NCBI RefSeq assembly: GCF_051903065.1
Contig: NZ_CP178441.1
Source: Escherichia coli
Lineage (GTDB): Bacteria > Pseudomonadota > Gammaproteobacteria > Enterobacterales > Enterobacteriaceae
DNA: 42,047 nt
Reading direction: 5' to 3' (one strand)
Position numbers and translations under genes: made by a program. The notes under the pieces are model-generated. The model had not been told where the DNA came from. It saw only the letters and a program-made list of their open reading frames with translations, and searched no databases. Positions 8,601 through 40,680 of this stretch are shown piece by piece (the first letter of the stretch is position 1; the number at the start of each line of letters is the position of its first letter).

Positions 8601-8688
8601 ACTTTACCTTCCCTTATTCGCAGCGGGGCTGCTCAACGGGAGTCCTGCTCTGCGAGGCTAATCGGCTACCGCCTATATGGAGATCGAG

Positions 8689-9042
8689 ATGACTGACAAT
8701 CAGACGCGGAAAAATTCCACACCGATCAAGGTTTACTGCTTCCCGGAAGAGAAGATGCAGATTGAAGCAAATGCCGCCGCTGCTGGTCTGAGTGTTGCGG
8801 CCTATTTGCGTAAAGTCGGTATGGGTTACGAAGTGGAGTCAATTGTTGATATAGAACAGGTCAAAGAGTTGAGTCGGGTTAATGGAGACTTGGGCCGACT
8901 TGGGGGGTTACTGAAGTTGTGGCTTTCCAATGACGAACGTACCCGGAATTTTTCGCCAGCGTTAATTAATACTCTGCTGGGAAAAATCGACGCCACGCAA
9001 AGCGCCCTTCGTGACGTAATGGACAGGATACTGAGTAAATGA
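8689..9042 (+). CDS. traJ: TraJ relaxosome accessory protein (ORF track start 8677)
   Basis: Strong similarity to recalled RP4 TraJ (PIKVYC..., GDLGRLGGLLKLWL). GGAG RBS before the ATG at 8689. Confidence 0.8.
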   Translation: MTDNQTRKNSTPIKVYCFPEEKMQIEANAAAAGLSVAAYLRKVGMGYEVESIVDIEQVKELSRVNGDLGRLGGLLKLWLSNDERTRNFSPALINTLLGKIDATQSALRDVMDRILSK

Positions 9043-9070: not shown

Positions 9071-11704
9071 GTGATTTCGCGTCACATCCCAATGCGTAAT
9101 GTAAAAAAAAGCAGTTTTTTTAGACTTGCTGAATATTTACAAGATTCGCAGAACAAACAGGAACGAGTTGGCGCTGTTAAGACTACAAACTGTCATCAGG
9201 AAAATATCCTTGATGCTGCTCGTTATGAGATTGAACCAACACAACGACTAAATACGCGTGCTAAGGGGGATAAAACTTATCATTTGGTTATTTCTTTTCG
9301 GCCTGGAGAAAACCCACCACAGGAGGTTTTAGATGTAATAGAAGAACGTATGTGTACAGCGTTAGGTTATGGTGAACATCAACGTGTAAGTGCAGTTCAT
9401 TACGATACAGACAATGTACATATTCAGATCGCAATAAACAAAGTTCATCCCAAAACTCACAACATTCATACTCCTTATAACGATTATAAGATTCGGACAG
9501 CCGTATGTCAGGAACTGGAAAAAGAGTTTGGCCTCGAAAAAGACAATCACCGGGCAAGTAAGACGCGATCCGAAAATAATGCGGCAGATATGGAAAGGCA
9601 TTCCGGCAGAGAAAGTTTGCTTGGCTGGATAAAGAGGGAGTGCGCAGATCAATTAAAGAGTGCGGCTAACTGGCAAGAGTTACATAAGGCAATGCGCCAG
9701 AATGGGCTTGAGTTACGCCAGAAAGGGAATGGATTCGTTATTACTGGTCCCGATGGCCTTGCTGTAAAAGCCAGCTCTGTAGATCGCTCTCTGTCCCGAG
9801 CAGCGCTTGAAAAGAAATTAGGCTCGTTTGAGTCTTCCATACCCGACACGAAACCTTCCAGACTTTCCCCGGAAGCGATTAAACAACGATTCGGTTCAGC
9901 TGTACATGTTAAGCGGCCCGGAGAACGCCCCCCACCAATTCGTGAAAACCGACAGGTTCACCTTGGGGAGATTCCCGTTATGTCGATTAACAATGGTAAA
10001 CGCTATGAGGGCAAACCGCTGGGTTCTCAGGGTGCAAGTACCTCAGTTCTTTACGGGCGCTACCAGAGTGAACAGCAACGGCTTACTGCTGCCCGTAACG
10101 AAGCACTGCGTCTGGCAAAGGTTAAACGTGATCGCCTCATTGAAAATGCCAAAAGGACAGGCCGGTTAAAGCGGGCAGCTATCAAGTTACTGAAAGGACC
10201 AGGCGTGAATAAACGCCATTTATATGGTTTGGCAAGTAAGGCGCTTGGGGAAGAACTTGAACGGGCAAATGCCATTTATAAAAAAGACCGGCAGGCAGCT
10301 TATGACATTCATAAACGCCGTACATGGGCTGACTGGCTGCAGTTCAAAGCCGCAGGTGGTGATGATGAAGCGCTGAAAATTTTACGCCAGCGGAATGCAC
10401 AACAGGCTCGTAAAGAGGCCAACATTCTGCATGGCGATAAAGTCAAAAAAGATGGCCGTATCCCTGGATTGAAACCGGACAGTGTAACGAAGGAAGGGAC
10501 GATTATTTACCGCGTGGGAGAGAGTGCTATCCGTGACGGTGGTAAACGTCTGGATGTATCACGTGATGCTGGTGATGACGGTCTTCATGCCGCACTGCTG
10601 ATGGCTAAACACCGTTACGGAGACAAACTCACCGTTAACGGCAGTTTTGAATTTAAAAAACGCATTGTAGCTGTAGCCGCTGCGCGTGAGCTGGACGTGT
10701 CATTTACCGATCCTGAACTGGAAAAGTTGAGGCAAATTCTGGCTAAGAAAGCGGCCCGCGAGCGTGAATACATCCACATCCCCTTTGAGCAAAGAGGCAA
10801 GGCCCGACAAGCCGGGGCCATGTGGGACACCGAAAAGAAATCCTGGTTTGTCGGTCCTTACGCAACCAGAGATCGGATTGAAAACTTTATCCGAATGAAT
10901 GAGGAAAAAGACAATGAGCAAAGACGACAAAGATATGCCGGAACAGAACGAACTGAGGCAGGACGAGAACGAAGCGGCAATGGCAATGCTACTGGAGCAA
11001 ATGAACCAGGAGTTACAGGACGAAGCCCCTCCGCTGATGCCGGAAACGGATATGGAACTAGCAACAGCGGAAGACGAACTGGCTCAGGCGATGGCGTTAC
11101 TACAGCAGGAAGCCAGCCAGGAAGGAGTGATGACACCCGTACAGGGAGAAGTCGAGCAGCCGAATCAAATGGTGAACGAGGACATCGTAAGCCCAACGTT
11201 GCGCGACCTGGACGCCAGCCGCCGCCCACAGCAAAAAACCGTCTGCGAGCAATGTCCGAACTCGGTATGGTTCGCATCGCCGGAGGAAGTGAAGTGTTAC
11301 TGCCGGGTAATGTTCCTGACCAGTTGGAGCACAAAACAGCCGAACGTACTGATCAACTGCGACGGGATATGGCTGGGGCAGGAGGAATAACAACACCTGC
11401 TGAGGTTAAGAAACCGCTGAGTAGTGCTGAAAAATATATCAATGAACGTGAGCAAAAACGCCTTAAAGGGTTCGATATACCGAAACATAGAGGGTATAAT
11501 TCTACTGATAAAGGTCTGTTTGAGTATGCAGGCCAACGTAAAAGCGGGCTGGAAACGTTAGCCCTGCTAAAACGGGATGATGAAATTGTTGTGATGCCTG
11601 TCAGCGATTACACCGCCCGGAGACTGAGCAATCTTAAAGTCGGGGAGTCAGTCACACTTACCCCTTCCGGTTCAGTTAGGACAACGAAAGGAAGAAGTCG
11701 ATGA
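9071..11704 (+). CDS. traI: TraI relaxase (MOB-P type), GTG start
   Basis: N-terminus matches recalled RP4 TraI, including the catalytic Tyr region (RLAEYLQD) and the His motif HYDTDNVHIQIAINKVHP. C-terminal third is a low-complexity G/S/R-rich linker. Confidence 0.85.
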   Translation: MISRHIPMRNVKKSSFFRLAEYLQDSQNKQERVGAVKTTNCHQENILDAARYEIEPTQRLNTRAKGDKTYHLVISFRPGENPPQEVLDVIEERMCTALGYGEHQRVSAVHYDTDNVHIQIAINKVHPKTHNIHTPYNDYKIRTAVCQELEKEFGLEKDNHRASKTRSENNAADMERHSGRESLLGWIKRECADQLKSAANWQELHKAMRQNGLELRQKGNGFVITGPDGLAVKASSVDRSLSRAALEKKLGSFESSIPDTKPSRLSPEAIKQRFGSAVHVKRPGERPPPIRENRQVHLGEIPVMSINNGKRYEGKPLGSQGASTSVLYGRYQSEQQRLTAARNEALRLAKVKRDRLIENAKRTGRLKRAAIKLLKGPGVNKRHLYGLASKALGEELERANAIYKKDRQAAYDIHKRRTWADWLQFKAAGGDDEALKILRQRNAQQARKEANILHGDKVKKDGRIPGLKPDSVTKEGTIIYRVGESAIRDGGKRLDVSRDAGDDGLHAALLMAKHRYGDKLTVNGSFEFKKRIVAVAAARELDVSFTDPELEKLRQILAKKAAREREYIHIPFEQRGKARQAGAMWDTEKKSWFVGPYATRDRIENFIRMNEEKDNEQRRQRYAGTERTEAGRERSGNGNATGANEPGVTGRSPSADAGNGYGTSNSGRRTGSGDGVTTAGSQPGRSDDTRTGRSRAAESNGERGHRKPNVARPGRQPPPTAKNRLRAMSELGMVRIAGGSEVLLPGNVPDQLEHKTAERTDQLRRDMAGAGGITTPAEVKKPLSSAEKYINEREQKRLKGFDIPKHRGYNSTDKGLFEYAGQRKSGLETLALLKRDDEIVVMPVSDYTARRLSNLKVGESVTLTPSGSVRTTKGRSR
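10899..11390 (+). CDS. out-of-frame gene embedded in traI: acidic N-terminal half (TraH-like) plus Cys-rich C-terminal half
   Basis: 163-aa ORF in an alternative frame, exactly over the low-complexity linker of TraI. RP4 encodes the acidic TraH inside traI. The C-terminus CEQCPNSVWFASPEEVKCYCRV...CDG has a zinc-ribbon-like Cys pattern. Confidence 0.45.
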   Translation: MRKKTMSKDDKDMPEQNELRQDENEAAMAMLLEQMNQELQDEAPPLMPETDMELATAEDELAQAMALLQQEASQEGVMTPVQGEVEQPNQMVNEDIVSPTLRDLDASRRPQQKTVCEQCPNSVWFASPEEVKCYCRVMFLTSWSTKQPNVLINCDGIWLGQEE

Positions 11705-11889
11705 AACAAAATTCCGAAGAATTAGGGCTGTTACTCGCCATGCTAAATACGGGGCATGGTGGTGCATTGGCAGGAAACCCAAACGAAGCCAGCCTGAATA
11801 CAGGCAAGGTTCAACAACTGTTAAACGTGATGGACGTCACCGCTGATGACTGGAACATAAAGGAGCAAGTCCATGAGAAAGCCAAATAA
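11701..11889 (+). CDS. small hypothetical ORF (62 aa) between traI and traG
   Basis: ATG overlaps the traI stop (ATGA). Overlaps the traG start by 17 nt. No recognisable motif. Confidence 0.3.
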   Translation: MKQNSEELGLLLAMLNTGHGGALAGNPNEASLNTGKVQQLLNVMDVTADDWNIKEQVHEKAK

Positions 11890-13816
11890 TGCCGTAGGGC
11901 CGCAGGTCCGTAATAAAAAGAAGGCAGCGAAAGGGAAACTGATCCCGGCGATGGCTATAACTTCACTGGCGGCTGGCATTCAGGCCGCCACACAGTATTT
12001 TGCTTACAGCTTTAATTATCAGGAACTGTTGGGGCCGAACTTTAATCACATCTATGCGCCGTGGTCCTATTTCAAATGGTATTCAGCATGGCATGAGCGC
12101 TTACCTGATGCGTTTTTTGCTGCTGGCAGTGTGGGGGCGGCGGTTGCTGCCGGTGGCCTAGTTCTGACCGCGCTGACAAGTATGATGAAAGCAAATTCAT
12201 CCAAGGCTAACGAATATCTTCATGGCTCTGCAAGATGGGCTGATGAGCAGGATATCAGAGATGCTGGTTTGCTGAATGATGAAGGTGTTTATGTTGGTGC
12301 GTGGGAAGACAAAAACGGTCAGTTGCGGTATCTGCGTCACAACGGCCCGGAACATGTTCTGACGTATGCACCTACCCGTTCTGGCAAAGGTGTCGGCCTG
12401 GTTGTTCCCACCTTGCTTTCCTGGAAACATTCAACGGTAGTGGCTGACCTTAAAGGTGAACTGTGGGCGATGACGGCGGGCTGGCGTAAAGAATATGCCA
12501 AGAATCTGTGTCTGAAATTCGAACCTGCTGCAGCTAATGGTTCCGTCGCCTGGAATCCTCTTGATGAAATCCGTGTGGGCACTGAAAACGAAGTTGGCGA
12601 CGTTCAGAATCTTGCCACGCTGATAGTTGACCCGGACGGTAAAGGACTAAATGACCACTGGCAGAAAACATCCCAGGCGCTTTTAGTCGGTGTGATCCTC
12701 CATGTACTTTACAAGCACAAAAATGAAGGTACGCCAGCAACGCTTCCGTATGTTGACTCCATCATGGCCGACCCGGAAAGAGGGGCAGGGGAATTGTGGA
12801 TGGAAATGACGCAATATAGTCACATAAATGGCGAGAATCATCCGGTGGTGGGGGCTGCCGGTCGTGACATGATGGACCGCCCGGAAGAAGAAGCCGGTTC
12901 CGTGCTGTCTACCGCAAAATCTTATCTCGCCCTTTTCCGTGATCCAGTTGTGGCTCGTAACGTCAGTGAGTCACATTTTAAAATAAAAGACCTGATGAAT
13001 CATGATGATCCGGTTTCGCTGTATATCGTTACTCAGCCTAATGATAAAGCTCGTCTGCGTCCGCTGGTACGAATCATGCTGAACATGATTGTTCGTTTGC
13101 TGGCTGACAAGATGGAATTTGAGCGTGTAGATAACAACCTTACGTTATGGCAGCGTTTTAAACAGGCGTTTGGTTTTTCAGTTCAGGGAACAAAAAGAGT
13201 ACAGACAAAGAAAACCTACAAACATCGTCTTCTGGGAATGATCGATGAGTTTCCAAGTCTGGGTAAACTCGAAATCATTCAGGAATCATTGGCTTTCCTT
13301 GCAGGTTATGGCATCAAGTTCTACCTCATCTGCCAGGATATTAATCAGTTGCGTAGCCGTGAAACAGGTTATGGGCCGGATGAAACAATAACCTCGAACT
13401 GCCATGTGCAGAACGCATATCCACCTAACCGTACTGAGACTGCAGAGCACCTTTCTAAGTTGACCGGACAAACAACGGTTATCAAAGAGCAGATCACAAC
13501 CAGCGGGAAACGTGCCAGTGCGATATTGGGTGGAGTATCCAAAACCATTCAGGAAGTACAGCGCCCACTTCTGACAGTGGATGAATGCCTGCGTATGCCA
13601 GGACCTAAGAAGAATGCTGAAGGTCTGATTACCGAGCGCGGCGACATGGTTATTTATGTGGCAGGTTTTCCGGCTATCTATGGAAAACAGCCGTTGTTTT
13701 TCCAAGATGAGATTTTCTCGCTTCGTGCTTCTGTACCTGCACCAAAAGTTACCGATCGGATTCGAGCTGTAGCTGCCGCGAATGATGACGCCAGTAATGA
13801 GGCTATCGCAATATGA
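11873..13816 (+). CDS. traG: TraG type IV coupling protein (VirD4 family)
   Basis: N-terminus matches recalled RP4 TraG (NNAVGPQ..., LHGSARWAD). Walker A APTRSGKGVG. Confidence 0.85.
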   Translation: MRKPNNAVGPQVRNKKKAAKGKLIPAMAITSLAAGIQAATQYFAYSFNYQELLGPNFNHIYAPWSYFKWYSAWHERLPDAFFAAGSVGAAVAAGGLVLTALTSMMKANSSKANEYLHGSARWADEQDIRDAGLLNDEGVYVGAWEDKNGQLRYLRHNGPEHVLTYAPTRSGKGVGLVVPTLLSWKHSTVVADLKGELWAMTAGWRKEYAKNLCLKFEPAAANGSVAWNPLDEIRVGTENEVGDVQNLATLIVDPDGKGLNDHWQKTSQALLVGVILHVLYKHKNEGTPATLPYVDSIMADPERGAGELWMEMTQYSHINGENHPVVGAAGRDMMDRPEEEAGSVLSTAKSYLALFRDPVVARNVSESHFKIKDLMNHDDPVSLYIVTQPNDKARLRPLVRIMLNMIVRLLADKMEFERVDNNLTLWQRFKQAFGFSVQGTKRVQTKKTYKHRLLGMIDEFPSLGKLEIIQESLAFLAGYGIKFYLICQDINQLRSRETGYGPDETITSNCHVQNAYPPNRTETAEHLSKLTGQTTVIKEQITTSGKRASAILGGVSKTIQEVQRPLLTVDECLRMPGPKKNAEGLITERGDMVIYVAGFPAIYGKQPLFFQDEIFSLRASVPAPKVTDRIRAVAAANDDASNEAIAI

Positions 13817-17121: not shown

Positions 17122-19239
17122 ATGGCAGAAGCTAAAGCGAAAAAACCATTTTATGAGATTGTGGCTGAAAACCTGATAGCCCAGCTTAAAGAGGGGACTG
17201 CTCCATGGCAGAAACCATGGAACCCCGGCGCTCCTGGTGTCGCATTGCCTATGAACCCTACGACGGGTAAACGTTATAAAGGCATTAACGCTATTCACCT
17301 TATGGCGCAGGGTTATAGCGATCAACGTTGGATGACCTATAAGCAGGCGACGGCTGCAAATGCGCAGGTAAGGAGAGGCGAAAAAGGCACGCCGATCCAA
17401 TACTGGAAATTTACTGAGGAACGCATCAAACGCAACGATGATGGTAGCGTTGTGCTCGATAAAGACGATAAACCGGTAAAAGAAACTGTCCAACTGGAGC
17501 GACCGAAGGTATTTAACGCAGTTGTGTTTAATGCGGAGCAGATTGACGGTCTACCGCCGATGGCCGTTCGCCAAGATAAGAGCTGGAACAGTATTGAACG
17601 TGCTGAATCTATTCTCGAAGCCTCTGGCGCGAAAATCTCTCATGACCAGGTTGACCGGGCTTTTTACCGTATGTCTACAGACAGCATTCATTTGCCGCAG
17701 CAGGCTTCCTTTCCAAGTGCTGATCGTTACTATGCCACTGCACTTCATGAATTGAGCCACTGGACAGGTCACGCATCGCGTCTTGATCGTGACCTGTCTC
17801 ATCCTTTTGGAAGTGAAGGTTACGCCAGAGAAGAACTACGCGCAGAGATTGCCAGTATGATCATTGGCGATGAACTGGGGATAGGTCATGACCCTTCCCA
17901 GCATGTTGCCTATGTAAAATCTTGGATTAAAGCCTTACAGGATGATCCGCTGGAAATTTTCCGTGCAGCAGCTGATGCTGAAAAAATCCAGGGGTTCGTG
18001 TTGGGCCTTGAACAACAGAGAATACAGGAACAACCGGTAACTCTGGAAAGAGAGCAGCGCGAAAAAGAGCATAATGAGGTAATGGCTGAGGTACAGCGGC
18101 TGACTAACCCGCAGATTTTCGATGCGGAAACAGCTCAACTCTATCATTTCACATTCATGACACTGGAGCAGACAGCTGAGGAAGCTGGTTACGTTACCTA
18201 TTACAGCCGTGGCACTGGTGAGCTGGGCGAAGAAACTATTCGGGTTAATTACGAAGACAGTAATGGAAATACTATTCCTGTTCATACTGATGTGGTTGGG
18301 CGCGGAAAAGCATTGACATATATCGGTGATGAGCGTGTCCCCGGAACGGGATTTTCATCCGATAATGAATGGCAAAGCAATGCTCTTAAAACCGCTTTCG
18401 CCAGCATGGATAACAACCTAACTTTAGTCGCTAAAAAAGTTCATAGTCAGATTGAAAATATCAGTGGAGACCCGCGAGAGTTACCGCAGGATGTTAAGTT
18501 TCCTAAAAACTGGTGGCCTAATTCCAGTTTTCTGGCGTCGACCCCAAGTGTGGAGAACTCAAAAGCAGCTGCAGAGGCTGATATGACCACTAAAACTGAA
18601 ACGTCTATTACATCAGCGCAGCAGCGCCAGTATCGTGCAGAGAAATTTATTCTTTCGAATCTCGATAGTGGTCTTTCTAAGCACGTTCAGAATATGAACC
18701 GTCGCCAGCTTACGTTGTCACGAAACGTTCTCTATGATGCTCAAAATAGCAATCAGGATAGTGATTTTTGGCAGCGTAACAAGGAATTTCATTCTTCGTT
18801 CAGTCAAAACTGGAATGAGGCTCAGGACAAGATCAAGAGCGCATACCGTGAGATTGATTTTGCATTATCACTTCTACCAGAGCCGAAATATAACATTGTG
18901 GAAAATCCTGGTCAGAATGAGCATGTGAATATAATCATGCAGACCAACAGTGCAGTTAAGGCGCTGGCCGCTGTTAACGAAGGGGATAATCGTTCAATTT
19001 ATGACTCACGTCTCATCAATAACGGTAAGGTCGATCTGAATGACCTGCAGAACAATTTTTATCAAACACTTGAAGCAGAAAAAGCAGCCTTAAAGCAAGG
19101 TATTATCAAGCCTGATGATGAGATTAGCGTGCTCCCACCAAGAGAAGCACAGGAATGGTATCAAGACCGTGTTGAAGGCTTGACGTATAGGAAATTGAAA
19201 AACCAGTCGATACCATTGTCCACGCCTTATGCCACGTGA
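17122..19239 (+). CDS. ardC: ArdC-like antirestriction protein (N-terminal ssDNA-binding domain plus HExxH metalloprotease) with a roughly 400-aa C-terminal extension
   Basis: N-terminal ...APWQKPW... ArdC-type segment and HExxH motif ALHELSHWTGH. Total length 705 aa versus about 300 aa for canonical ArdC. Confidence 0.7.
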   Translation: MAEAKAKKPFYEIVAENLIAQLKEGTAPWQKPWNPGAPGVALPMNPTTGKRYKGINAIHLMAQGYSDQRWMTYKQATAANAQVRRGEKGTPIQYWKFTEERIKRNDDGSVVLDKDDKPVKETVQLERPKVFNAVVFNAEQIDGLPPMAVRQDKSWNSIERAESILEASGAKISHDQVDRAFYRMSTDSIHLPQQASFPSADRYYATALHELSHWTGHASRLDRDLSHPFGSEGYAREELRAEIASMIIGDELGIGHDPSQHVAYVKSWIKALQDDPLEIFRAAADAEKIQGFVLGLEQQRIQEQPVTLEREQREKEHNEVMAEVQRLTNPQIFDAETAQLYHFTFMTLEQTAEEAGYVTYYSRGTGELGEETIRVNYEDSNGNTIPVHTDVVGRGKALTYIGDERVPGTGFSSDNEWQSNALKTAFASMDNNLTLVAKKVHSQIENISGDPRELPQDVKFPKNWWPNSSFLASTPSVENSKAAAEADMTTKTETSITSAQQRQYRAEKFILSNLDSGLSKHVQNMNRRQLTLSRNVLYDAQNSNQDSDFWQRNKEFHSSFSQNWNEAQDKIKSAYREIDFALSLLPEPKYNIVENPGQNEHVNIIMQTNSAVKALAAVNEGDNRSIYDSRLINNGKVDLNDLQNNFYQTLEAEKAALKQGIIKPDDEISVLPPREAQEWYQDRVEGLTYRKLKNQSIPLSTPYAT

Positions 19240-19503
19240 GCCTTTCTGCTTTTCCCACCACTCCGGTGGTTTCCCTCTCTGTATGGTCGATTTTTATACC
19301 GTAACAGGCTGTTTTTTATACTTTCACCGATTCCCGGGCACACTTAGCCTGTGTCAGGCCGGCATATACCTCAGTAGACTGATATCCCGCGCGTTTTTCT
19401 TCAGCCCTGATACATTCAGCCCCGCAATGGCCCGGCGGTATACCATCCGGCAGCCACACAGCACGCATTCGAACGGGTCACGACTCAGGAACTGTTTCAC
19501 CAT

Positions 19504-21291
19504 TTGTGCATAGCACACTTTCGCCACTGGTTCATGGAGGACGCTGACAGCCCGGATGAACTGAAAAGCGCTCTGGATGCGCTTGGCCCAGAACCGGGAG
19601 ATAATGAGGCTGTTTTCCTTGGTGAAGATGGAGGGCGAATTCTTCCAGAATTCAGTCTGAACGTTACGCAGGAAAATACTCCAATCAATGTCCCCTACAA
19701 AGAACGCAATGAAGCTAAAGCGCTTGGGGCAAAATGGGATCGAACCGAACAGACCTGGTTTGTACCAAAAGGTGTATCTCTGGATAAATTTGCAAAATGG
19801 GTTGGTGGGCCAACTGCAGAAAACAATTCATCTGTCGTATCTGTGAAAGAAGTAACGCCAAAAGTGGGTGAGCGTCAGAATCTGGCTGTCCCTTATAAAG
19901 ACCGCGCAGAAGCTAAAGCAGCTGGTGCTAAATGGGACAAAGAGAAAAAAACTTGGTATGCCGAAGCTGGGGCAGATATGCAAAAACTGGCGAAGTGGAA
20001 ACCGGAAAATGTGGTGATCGAACAGTCACCGGCCATGACGCTAAAGGAGGAAGTAGAAACCGCGCTGAAAGATATTGGGTGCATCCTTGATGCCGATACT
20101 GACAAAGGACAGAAACATCCAATTATGGATGGTAAGAAGCATCGGATCACGGTAGAGGGAGACAAGAAAGGGGAAAAGTCAGGTTTTTATATCATCTATA
20201 CTGACGGCCATCCTGCGGGCTTCATGCAGAACAACCGCACCAAAGAAGAGTTACGTTGGTCTTCCAAGGGAAATGTGATGTCCGACGAAGAAAAAGCGCT
20301 CCTGCGGGCGCAGGCTGCTCAGAAACAGGCCGAAAAAGCGGCACAGCAGCAAAAAGACCATGAGTCCTCTGCAAAGCGTGTTCAAAAGCAGCTCGCTAAA
20401 CTCAATGAACCTCAGCAGCAAACTGCTTACCTGAAGAAGAAAGGGCTGCAGGTACATAAAGGTGTGTTCACTGATAAGGACGGACAGAAAACCTTTATTC
20501 CTGCTTATGATGTCCATGGTAAGCAATGGACTATGCAGTACATCAACGAGGACGGCACAAAACGTTTTGCCAAAAATGCTCGCAAAGAGGGATGTTTCCA
20601 TGTCATTGGCGGGCTGGATGCGCTTAAAAAATCTCCGGTGTTGATTGTGGCCGAAGGTTACGCAACGGCAGGGAGCATCACAGAGGCTACTAATATACCA
20701 ACGGTCGCCGCCTTCGATTCAGGTAATCTGGAATCTGTCGCGAAAACGCTTAAAGAAGCCTACCCCGATAAGCCAATCATCATTGCCGGTGATGATGATA
20801 TTTCTCAGTCATGCAAAATGAAGGTGAAGGATAAAGCCAGTGTAAACGTCGGCAGGGAAAAAGCGCTGGAAACAGCGAAAGCTGTCGGCGGTGTGGCTGT
20901 GTTTCCAGTTTTTGCTAAAGGTGAATTACCTGGGAAAGACGAACTCAGCCAGATTAAACCGGCGGCGTATCTTGCACACCAGACCGCCTCGCGCAAACTG
21001 GAGGCCCATACGAGCGGTGATAAGCCACTCTCGGATGCCGAAGTGAAGGTTCTGCAGGCAGCACAGCTATCGGAAAAGCAGCTTGATATTATTCGCCGCG
21101 CTGATCGTTACACTGACTTTAACGATCTGGCCGTAAATAGTTCTCTTGGCCGGGAAGGTGTGGCGATGCAGTTGAAAGCCGTCATTGCTGACCAGCTGAA
21201 TAAAAAACAGCAGCAGTCACAGGTCCAGATCGAAGAGAAGAAACTCGTTCAGGAAAAAGAGAAAAAACGGACCATTCGCCACGCTATGTAA
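19504..21291 (+). CDS. traC: TraC-like DNA primase (Toprim domain); start uncertain (alternative ATG at 19534)
   Basis: Toprim segment VLIVAEGYATAGS...IIIAGDDD. Two N-terminal repeats of the ...AK..GAKWD...K.W motif. Confidence 0.75.
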   Translation: MCIAHFRHWFMEDADSPDELKSALDALGPEPGDNEAVFLGEDGGRILPEFSLNVTQENTPINVPYKERNEAKALGAKWDRTEQTWFVPKGVSLDKFAKWVGGPTAENNSSVVSVKEVTPKVGERQNLAVPYKDRAEAKAAGAKWDKEKKTWYAEAGADMQKLAKWKPENVVIEQSPAMTLKEEVETALKDIGCILDADTDKGQKHPIMDGKKHRITVEGDKKGEKSGFYIIYTDGHPAGFMQNNRTKEELRWSSKGNVMSDEEKALLRAQAAQKQAEKAAQQQKDHESSAKRVQKQLAKLNEPQQQTAYLKKKGLQVHKGVFTDKDGQKTFIPAYDVHGKQWTMQYINEDGTKRFAKNARKEGCFHVIGGLDALKKSPVLIVAEGYATAGSITEATNIPTVAAFDSGNLESVAKTLKEAYPDKPIIIAGDDDISQSCKMKVKDKASVNVGREKALETAKAVGGVAVFPVFAKGELPGKDELSQIKPAAYLAHQTASRKLEAHTSGDKPLSDAEVKVLQAAQLSEKQLDIIRRADRYTDFNDLAVNSSLGREGVAMQLKAVIADQLNKKQQQSQVQIEEKKLVQEKEKKRTIRHAM

Positions 21292-21386
21292 GATGTTCTG
21301 ACTCTGGCCTGCCTGCGGGCCAGTAAATTGCGCTCGCTTTAATGGTAAAATTAAATGCATCAAAAGATTACTTTTAAGGACAGAAA

Positions 21387-21878
21387 ATGAAAAAGATATA
21401 TACCGCAGCGTTTTTATTAATTTTTACCCCTTTAACTTATGCCACCGGATTTCCATGTGCTGGCTGTGGAATTGTTGATAATATGATAAAAGGAAAGGCT
21501 GATGAAACACCAATAATGGTGATGCTAGATACTCCGATTGAAAAAAATGACATTACGCCGAAGGAAATAAACTTAATATCACACGACGATAAATGTCTTT
21601 ACTCTGGTGTACTTACACAGACTCTTTCGAAAAATAAAGACAGCCGTATTATTGATGTCAATAAAAAGGTTTGCGGCTCGAATACTGAAAAGGTGTCTTA
21701 CTCCGTTTTGAGCATTAGTTCCAGCGAGCAATACAGCAAAGGCACACCGCTAAAGCTGTATCATGTCGCCGTAATGACTTCGGCAGGTCCGTTGTTCAGC
21801 GCTGATGTAATGAGCGAAATGATTAAAGATATTGCAGATGCAGTAGAACAGGCTAAGGCAAAAGGACTGACTAAGTGA
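21387..21878 (+). CDS. secreted/periplasmic hypothetical protein
   Basis: N-terminal signal peptide MKKIYTAAFLLIFTPLTYA. AT-rich. RBS AAGGA. Confidence 0.55.
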   Translation: MKKIYTAAFLLIFTPLTYATGFPCAGCGIVDNMIKGKADETPIMVMLDTPIEKNDITPKEINLISHDDKCLYSGVLTQTLSKNKDSRIIDVNKKVCGSNTEKVSYSVLSISSSEQYSKGTPLKLYHVAVMTSAGPLFSADVMSEMIKDIADAVEQAKAKGLTK

Positions 21879-22090
21879 GTCATTCAGATAAAAGGTCCGA
21901 GTTTTTGTATATGTTCCGGCGTTGCAGAACGATAGATACAGTTGAACGCCTTTATGAACATAAGCGGGACATTGTTTCTTCTGAACATCTTAGCGATTTT
22001 CTGAGTGCTTATGATCATCGCAAGGCAGAAATTTATCATGGAAAAATCTGGGATAAGGTTCCTGCGTCTGCCTGGCGGAATGTGAAATAA
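21875..22090 (+). CDS. hypothetical protein (71 aa), coupled to the upstream secreted protein gene
   Basis: GTGA start/stop overlap. Followed by a strong hairpin terminator. Confidence 0.4.
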   Translation: MSHSDKRSEFLYMFRRCRTIDTVERLYEHKRDIVSSEHLSDFLSAYDHRKAEIYHGKIWDKVPASAWRNVK

Positions 22091-40225: not shown

Positions 40226-40540
40226 GGGGCACATATTTTTTTTATGACAGTTGAGGGGCGCTTTATTGCGCCCTTCTTTGTTTAGGACGAGTTTAGCCCG
40301 CACGAAATTTTGTTTAGGCGTATAGAGCTTAACCAGACGTTAGAATTATCCCCTTAATTTGTGGATAAGTCTGTTAATATCCCGGTAAAGATACGACATT
40401 TAAGGGGCGGAAAGGTGACACTTGAGGGGCGCTATTATGACATATGAAGGGCGCTATCATGATATTTGAGGGGCGGAAAGGTGACACTTGAGGGGCGCTA
40501 TTATGACATATGAAGGGCACTATCATGACATTTGAGGGGC
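40216..40540 (+). repeat. oriV iterons: nine copies of TGACA-N-TTGAGGGGC-like 15-17-mers (two at 40216..40259; seven at exact 22-bp spacing from 40394 to 40540)
   Basis: Repeat sequence matches the RK2 iteron consensus. 22-bp periodicity read directly. The first iteron overlaps the trfA stop codon. Confidence 0.85.
40360..40368 (-). promoter_or_regulatory. DnaA box (TTATCCACA on the minus strand); a second near-consensus box at 40544..40552
   Basis: Exact 9-mer consensus read between the two iteron groups. Confidence 0.55.
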
Positions 40541-40680
40541 GCTTGTGGATATGATTTTCCATGTTTTTCATATTGATACAGTTGTTTTCCACAACCCTCT
40601 AACCAGATCTTAACCGATCTTTTAACCGATCTTTTAACCATTTCTAACCAAAAGAAATAACCTGTTATTTTAACCGGCGT
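40541..40680. other. oriV A+T-rich region with tandem AACCGATCTTTT-like repeats (candidate DNA unwinding element)
   Basis: Approximately 12-13-bp direct repeats between 40601 and 40672, immediately after the iterons. Confidence 0.5.

Follow-up and report, generated by a model that had tools for sequence, protein, structure and literature searches.

Within the conjugative relaxase gene traI of an Escherichia coli plasmid, a second reading frame stays open over 163 codons, which raises the question of whether this frame is a gene of its own and, if so, what its product does. The window, i.e. the whole stretch of DNA that was analysed (42,047 nt, contig NZ_CP178441.1), had been the subject of a preliminary description, which had pointed to a 163-aa out-of-frame ORF embedded in the relaxase gene. 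This ORF is present on the plus strand at positions 10899–11390, where it runs from an ATG to a TAA codon in frame +1 relative to traI; its start was moved to position 10914. Taken together, the results make it highly probable that the ORF is the traH gene of an IncP-type relaxosome, that its translation begins at the ATG at 10914 behind a Shine-Dalgarno motif of its own, and that it encodes a relaxosome stabiliser composed of an acidic N-terminal part and a Cys domain that probably binds zinc.

The window is a complete conjugative plasmid of ~42 kb and IncP/P-1-like. The region tested is identical to that of plasmids from E. coli, Salmonella and Shigella, e.g. CP073612.1 and pCFSA664-2 (CP033354), and the plasmid was placed in the pCFSA664-2 clade of IncP/P-1. 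In an identical plasmid the IncP-like gene set is complete, with traK/L/M, traJ, traI, traG, traF and the trb genes, and traJ is annotated as such in identical records. NCBIfam matches for TraJ, TraI and TraG gave the gene order traJ-traI(traH)-traG on an IncP-like backbone. The features of this region are compiled in Table 1. The offset of traH against traI, (10914 − 9071) mod 3, is 1, and traH fills a gap between the recognised domains of TraI.

Table 1 Features of the relaxase operon and of the embedded traH gene in the window
Feature	Position (nt)	Strand	Basis and details
traJ, relaxosome protein that binds oriT, heads the relaxase operon	8677–9042	+	NF010451 TraJ, E 1.7e-50
traI, MOBP relaxase, 877 aa, host gene of the overlap	9071–11704	+	NF041893 TraI_MobP, 525 bits
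Pfam domains of TraI (residues)			Relaxase 22-155, TraI_middle 168-255, LPD7 470-556, DUF5710 565-606, TraI-like_C 786-870
Upstream in-frame ATG plus 5 codons (MRKKT)	10899–10913	+	start assumed in the preliminary description
Shine-Dalgarno motif GAGGA, 8 nt before the traH ATG at 10914	10901–10905	+	sequence
traH coding sequence, 158 aa plus stop, over TraI residues 615-773	10914–11390	+	ORF, homologues, match to RP4 TraH
TraH N-terminal half, aa 1-92, acidic, fast-evolving, over a Gly/Ser/Arg-rich TraI linker	10914–11189	+	composition, AF2, alignment
TraH Cys module, aa 93-158 (66 residues), conserved	11190–11387	+	SPTL..L.xSRRPxxxTV-C111-xx-C114-PNSVWF...K-C128-Y-C130-RVM...C149-DG
Small ORF between traI and traG	11701–11889		
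traG, coupling protein, downstream of traI	11873–13816	+	NF010453 TraG, 1123 bits

The position of the start codon was settled by comparison. Upstream of the ATG at 10899 a Shine-Dalgarno motif was looked for and not found, and this codon is probably not the start of traH. The gene was placed at 10914–11390 because its homologues begin with MSK(D/E)D, a sequence that starts at the second ATG, because the relative L013 lacks the upstream ATG, because the GAGGA motif precedes the second ATG and because public protein collections contain the 158-aa form; the 163-aa form was looked for in the protein collection and not found. The second ATG, giving a protein of 158 aa, is almost certainly the traH start. 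The product is a small acidic protein of 18 kDa with a pI of 4.05 and 32 D+E versus 10 K+R residues. The proposed division into an acidic N-terminal and a Cys-rich C-terminal half was borne out, as 24 D+E face only 3 K+R in the first 92 residues and all five cysteines lie within the final 48 residues.

The preliminary description had suggested a counterpart of the TraH protein of plasmid RP4, and the search results agree with it. In a BLASTP comparison with RP4 TraH, 49 of 67 residues (73%) at the C-terminal end were identical (E 1e-38); the reference, read from pRP4 (L003, positions 2348–2707), has 119 aa and its C-terminal end is ...TVCERCPNSVWFASPAELKCYCRVMFLVTWSSKEPNQLTHCDGEFLGQEEG. On sequence grounds this comparison identifies the ORF as orthologous to RP4 TraH, i.e. 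as a member of the IncP TraH family. A wider homology search returned 218 proteins, several of which are titled 'TraH conjugative transfer protein, relaxosome stabilization', and the best Foldseek matches in AFDB50 were all UniProt TraH entries. The exact 158-aa product has an NCBI entry, HFK4013827.1, titled 'conjugal transfer protein TraH [Escherichia coli]'. With this entry and the homologues so named, traH is an already known gene. Scanning the family libraries Pfam, NCBIfam, PHROGs and PADLOC with TraH matched no family.

The gene resembles TraH of RP4/RK2 (IncP-1alpha) in being small and acidic, in its +1 position in traI, in its own Shine-Dalgarno motif and ATG and in the arrangement traJ-traI(traH)-traG. 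The host relaxases differ, since TraI has 877 aa in the window and 732 aa in RP4, the former with DUF5710 inserted just upstream of traH. The IncP-1beta TraH of the R751 type (pMH0621-02Tc, LC623884; annotated as 'relaxosome stabilization protein') shares the embedding, the frame and the Cys module, but it has 130 aa and its N-terminus is Pro/Ala-rich instead of strongly acidic and helical. Moreover, TraH-like ORFs were recognised, all of them unannotated, on a Neisseria gonorrhoeae conjugative plasmid, on Xylella pXFAS01, in mobP1 of Campylobacter pTet and on a 7.4-kb E. coli plasmid. These have the same Cys module at 35-60% identity; they always lie in +1 to the surrounding relaxase frame and have a start codon preceded by a Shine-Dalgarno motif. 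The host relaxase family differs, however, as it is PF03432 in Campylobacter, where the module lies at the 3′ end of mobP1, and PF03389 (MobA/MobL) in the 7.4-kb plasmid, where it lies inside the relaxase gene. These host relaxases also differ in where the TraH-like ORF lies with respect to the LPD7 domain. MobB of the IncQ plasmids RSF1010/R1162 is likewise a small accessory gene in the +1 frame of a relaxase gene, mobA, and is reportedly a relaxosome stabiliser. The MobB sequence of an IncQ1 plasmid is free of cysteines, and its C-terminal segment is hydrophobic and of membrane type; lacking the Cys module, the protein was rejected as a TraH homologue and is an analogue rather than a relative.

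What these proteins have in common is the C-terminal module. Searched with a profile, 1.84 billion representatives yielded 657 clusters at 50% identity, nearly all of them of 70-180 aa and with the module at the C-terminus. Among 146 representatives with a pairwise identity of at most 50%, C111, C114, W119 and C130 were present in every one, C149-D-G in 140 of 141 and C128 in 129. The alignments characterise the Cys module as the sole strongly conserved part of the TraH family and the acidic N-terminus as variable. A comparison of five diverged plasmids (the window, RP4, the R751-type plasmid, Xylella and Neisseria) gave 70% identity for the module when read as TraH and 50% when read as TraI, against 55% for the catalytic region of the relaxase (first 260 residues) in the same five plasmids. 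The module thus surpasses the catalytic domain of the relaxase in conservation.

Four invariant cysteines in the arrangement C-x2-C...C...C within a small cytoplasmic beta-rich domain are the most frequent hallmark of structural zinc sites. The spacing in TraH, C-x2-C-x15-C-x18-C, is of this CxxC type with four ligands. A Cys4 site was assigned since four of the cysteines are essentially invariant and C128 is less so; judged from this conservation, C111, C114, C130 and C149 most likely hold one zinc ion. Alternatively, the gene may be traH with cysteines that serve without zinc, in an Fe-S cluster, with another metal or as redox disulfides, or with a product of different role, such as ssDNA binding or coupling of TraI to TraG or to the recipient. 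The module, although modelled confidently (pLDDT 93), matched nothing in PDB, Pfam or NCBIfam, including folds and profiles of known zinc domains, and a profile search of PDB by sequence gave nothing below E = 1. Two of the 146 family members had a marginal match, at noise level (E ~0.03), to the profile of the endonuclease III Fe-S domain. Reports of metal binding by any TraH were not found in the literature searched. Against these observations stands the Cys4 pattern itself, and we consider the reading without zinc or with another role, taken as a whole, unlikely.

The question of the role is approached best from RP4, where acidic TraH, encoded in another frame inside traI, stabilises TraJ's interaction with TraI at oriT (PMC7314908), in agreement with a second source (PMC10521675). 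For the TraH of the window plasmid, experiments were not found in the literature searched. We propose that traH would be translated within the traJ-traI mRNA from its own Shine-Dalgarno motif and ATG, in +1 to the relaxase. By analogy with RP4, the product most likely binds the TraJ-TraI complex at oriT via protein-protein contacts and would stabilise the relaxosome in this way. The Cys4 domain could dock on the relaxase complex as a protein-interaction module stabilised by zinc, and clade-specific contacts may be added by the acidic helices; we infer this assignment of TraH parts to contacts with TraI or TraJ. TraH-like ORFs follow the relaxase gene whatever genes adjoin it and occur also on plasmids typed as mobilizable rather than conjugative; a role in DNA processing therefore fits. 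The higher conservation of the module compared with the catalytic domain of the relaxase suggests a role beyond the modest one usually ascribed to TraH and in this respect favours a different function, whereas relaxosome stabilisation is the only role reported from experiments (PMC7314908).

A broader reading is that the core of TraH is a structurally uncharacterised, metal-binding Cys4 mini-domain, kept as a +1 cassette in at least two relaxase families (PF03432 and PF03389) and acting as a core component of the relaxosome. We put this forward tentatively, as a possibility somewhat short of probable. If true, TraH would be an under-appreciated core component of the relaxosome and not a dispensable, IncP-specific helper. 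Such cassettes span a range from IncP-1 to Neisseria, Xylella and Campylobacter plasmids. In the older RP4 literature, traH mutants are said to be only mildly impaired in transfer, if at all, in E. coli. This phenotype is at odds with the very strong conservation seen here.

An open +1 frame might also follow as a by-product from the residues that make up the TraI linker and be untranslated in this plasmid. When traI was reshuffled synonymously with the TraI protein kept fixed, the +1 frame remained stop-free over 10899–11387 in ~5% of the trials, and a stop-free +1 run of at least 163 codons occurred anywhere in traI in 7%. At 5-7% under synonymous reshuffling, the length of the ORF was rejected as weak proof of a gene. 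In addition, the annotation pipeline PGAP leaves the ORF unannotated in identical records. The decisive support for a gene is comparative and lies in homology and in the substitution pattern rather than in the open frame. Substitutions were assigned to codon positions in six sequences of the window's clade with 73-97% DNA identity. In the traI flanks outside the overlap, TraI position 3 was the most variable (0.34 and 0.33 versus 0.11-0.16 at positions 1 and 2). Within the overlap the peak of variation shifted to TraI position 1, which is position 3 of the TraH codons: the values at TraI positions 1, 2 and 3 were 0.36, 0.25 and 0.27 over the N-terminal half, where the peak is thus still at TraH position 3, and 0.22, 0.08 and 0.09 over the Cys module. 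The TraH frame evolves as protein-coding sequence under purifying selection.

The same result was obtained over larger distances, with 19 loci examined from related and distant plasmids, three of them metagenomic contigs. The TraH frame was open and in +1 within the relaxase gene at all 16 loci with an intact annotated relaxase frame, i.e. RP4, the R751 type and 14 others share the offset. A purine-rich Shine-Dalgarno motif of the GGAG/GAGG type was found 6-10 nt before an ATG or GTG at 17 of 17 loci checked. With both frames compared across relatives, as had been recommended initially, the alternative frame was without stop codons in every relative examined. The shift of periodicity into the TraH frame, the higher conservation of this frame than of the TraI frame, the Shine-Dalgarno motif and start codon kept at 17 loci, the 657 homologous clusters and the status of RP4 TraH as a characterised relaxosome protein (PMC7314908) all speak against a by-product, which we regard as very improbable. 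The earlier suggestion of a genuine overprinted gene was right: these comparisons show traH to be an independently initiated, selected gene embedded in +1 in the relaxase operon. The metagenomic contigs were also considered as carriers of stand-alone TraH genes, and this was rejected, as a TraI-type frame runs on without stops through TraH in two of these three contigs, the remaining one being an assembly of low coverage with many frameshifts.

The overlap had been described as coinciding exactly with a Gly/Ser/Arg linker of TraI. This is correct for the N-terminal 92 codons of traH, beneath which TraI residues 615-706 are of low complexity, with 48% G+S+R compared to 26% in the whole protein. 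It does not apply to the Cys module, since the TraI residues 707-773 beneath it are of ordinary composition and align with RP4 TraI. Much of the conservation of the TraI frame beneath the module is forced by TraH; for example, C-E-x-C in TraH is read as L-R-x-(M/L) in TraI. TraH position 3 is less variable than an ordinary wobble position (0.43 versus 0.64). Moreover, the TraI motif xVxRPGxxPPPxxxNR...I..G recurs at TraI 279-309, in a stretch whose +1 frame does not resemble TraH; this repeat scored 63, compared with 27 ± 5 for shuffled sequences, and none of 5000 shuffles reached 63. The damped position 3 and the recurrence of the motif suggest that the TraI frame bears some constraint of its own. 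As TraH codon position 2 is the wobble position of TraI, mutants affected in TraH only can easily be designed, several of the changes being silent in TraI. These include the conversion of the traH ATG to ACG (T10915C, with Asn615 kept) and Cys-to-Ser replacements at C111, C128, C130 and C149.

Over the N-terminal half, the alignment is rich in indels and poorly conserved, with (T)EDELIxAALAALD as a loose common motif. Helices were predicted by AF2 at TraH residues 12-35 and 47-68, the confidence being low to moderate. An internal duplication of the acidic helix gave P = 0.06 in a shuffle test; a second copy in the window's clade is suggestive at this value, which is not significant, and is not claimed. 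The window protein is 39 residues longer than RP4 TraH (158 versus 119 aa), and a zinc module gained in addition to RP4 TraH, with a new function, as the preliminary description had it, would account for a longer protein, but the idea is refuted by the RP4 TraH sequence itself, which has all five cysteines in its 73%-identical C-terminal 67 residues, and with the added length wholly in the acidic N-terminus and the module also present in the R751-type, Neisseria, Xylella and Campylobacter homologues as the core of the family, its probability is close to nil.

As traH is already known, what is new is only its missing annotation and a published absence call. Besides the identical records, most records of the pCFSA664-2-like clade leave the gene unannotated. 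A known conjugation gene is hence missing from the standard annotation of a clinically common clade that is related to the mcr-1 IncP plasmids. Neither a profile family nor a structure exists for TraH, whose conserved part is probably a zinc domain; a Pfam/NCBIfam model and a structure would let pipelines recover traH and make its role in relaxosome assembly testable. In a published comparison, traH was scored absent in pCFSA664-2 and its neighbours (PMC9499019, Table 2). Contrary to that table, an ORF identical to the traH of the window is present in pCFSA664-2.

The gene traH was scored as absent from several related plasmids, among them pCFSA664-2, pMCR-1511, pHS102707, pEN3600 and pEMT3 (PMC9499019, Table 2). 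In pCFSA664-2 (CP033354), an open reading frame identical to the traH of the window is located at positions 1915-2391 of the compared locus L025, and a match to TraH was obtained by tblastn in pEMT3 (JX469827). Hence, the reported absence is an annotation artefact for at least these two plasmids. A tblastn search placed the Cys module of TraH in 743 plasmid records, 207 of which were from Campylobacter. Distant relaxase genes likewise contain, in the +1 frame, intact but unannotated TraH-like reading frames that carry this Cys module (see table); one of these relaxases has a MobA/MobL-type catalytic domain (PF03389) instead of PF03432. In a few database proteins an N-terminal relaxase part is fused in-frame to the C-terminal TraH module. 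These fusions most likely represent frameshift errors or pseudogenes.

Location of TraH-like reading frames, relaxase-TraH module fusions, TraI repeat copies and the ORF between traI and traG
Feature	Source	Coordinates	Remark
TraH-like ORF	CP090278.1 (plasmid locus L009)	2414-2692	
TraH-like ORF	Campylobacter pTet (plasmid locus L006)	2483-2755	
TraH-like ORF	Neisseria gonorrhoeae pConj (plasmid locus L005)	2378-2776	
Relaxase-TraH module fusion	database protein P0157		640 aa
Relaxase-TraH module fusion	database protein P0190		637 aa
Relaxase-TraH module fusion	database protein P0163		302 aa
TraI repeat copy 1	window	9905-9997	aa 279-309
TraI repeat copy 2	window	11195-11287	aa 709-739
62-codon ORF	window	11701-11889	overlaps traI stop and traG start

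The motif xVxRPGxxPPPxxxNR......E.....I..G occurs twice within TraI, with an alignment score of 63 compared to 27 ± 5 for shuffled sequences, none of which scored as high in 5000 trials. Copy 2 is overlain by the Cys module of TraH. Copy 1 lies within 45 aa that are inserted relative to RP4 TraI, and the +1 frame over it is not TraH-like, which suggests an independent function for the motif in the TraI frame. Directly upstream of traH, a DUF5710 domain was recognized in TraI (aa 565-606, window 10763-10888, E 2e-10). This domain has no counterpart in RP4 TraI and explains part of the size difference between the two proteins (877 versus 732 aa).

The 62-codon ORF, for which there is no gene at the corresponding position in RP4, is labelled as hypothetical protein in identical plasmids and had no match in NCBIfam or PHROG. 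Related plasmids carry a shorter version, which bears the annotation T4SS DNA-transfer family protein.

The traC-like primase gene is a single 3.8-kb CDS in CP073612.1, whereas in the window it is broken into two ORFs (17122-19239 and 19504-21291) by a 347-bp segment at 19184-19530. This segment is missing from CP073612.1, elsewhere 99.9% identical to the window, and matches part of IS1294/IS91-family elements at 100%; these elements are present in 2,935 plasmid records. Another difference from CP073612.1 lies at 21329-22068, where the window is identical to plasmids of the pCFSA664-2 type; in their records, a hypothetical protein and an Hha/YmoA-family regulator are annotated at this position. 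At 40395-40541, on the downstream side of the replication initiator gene, two overlapping 81-bp matches of 95% identity each reveal a tandem repeat (period ~66 bp), which possibly represents oriV iterons.
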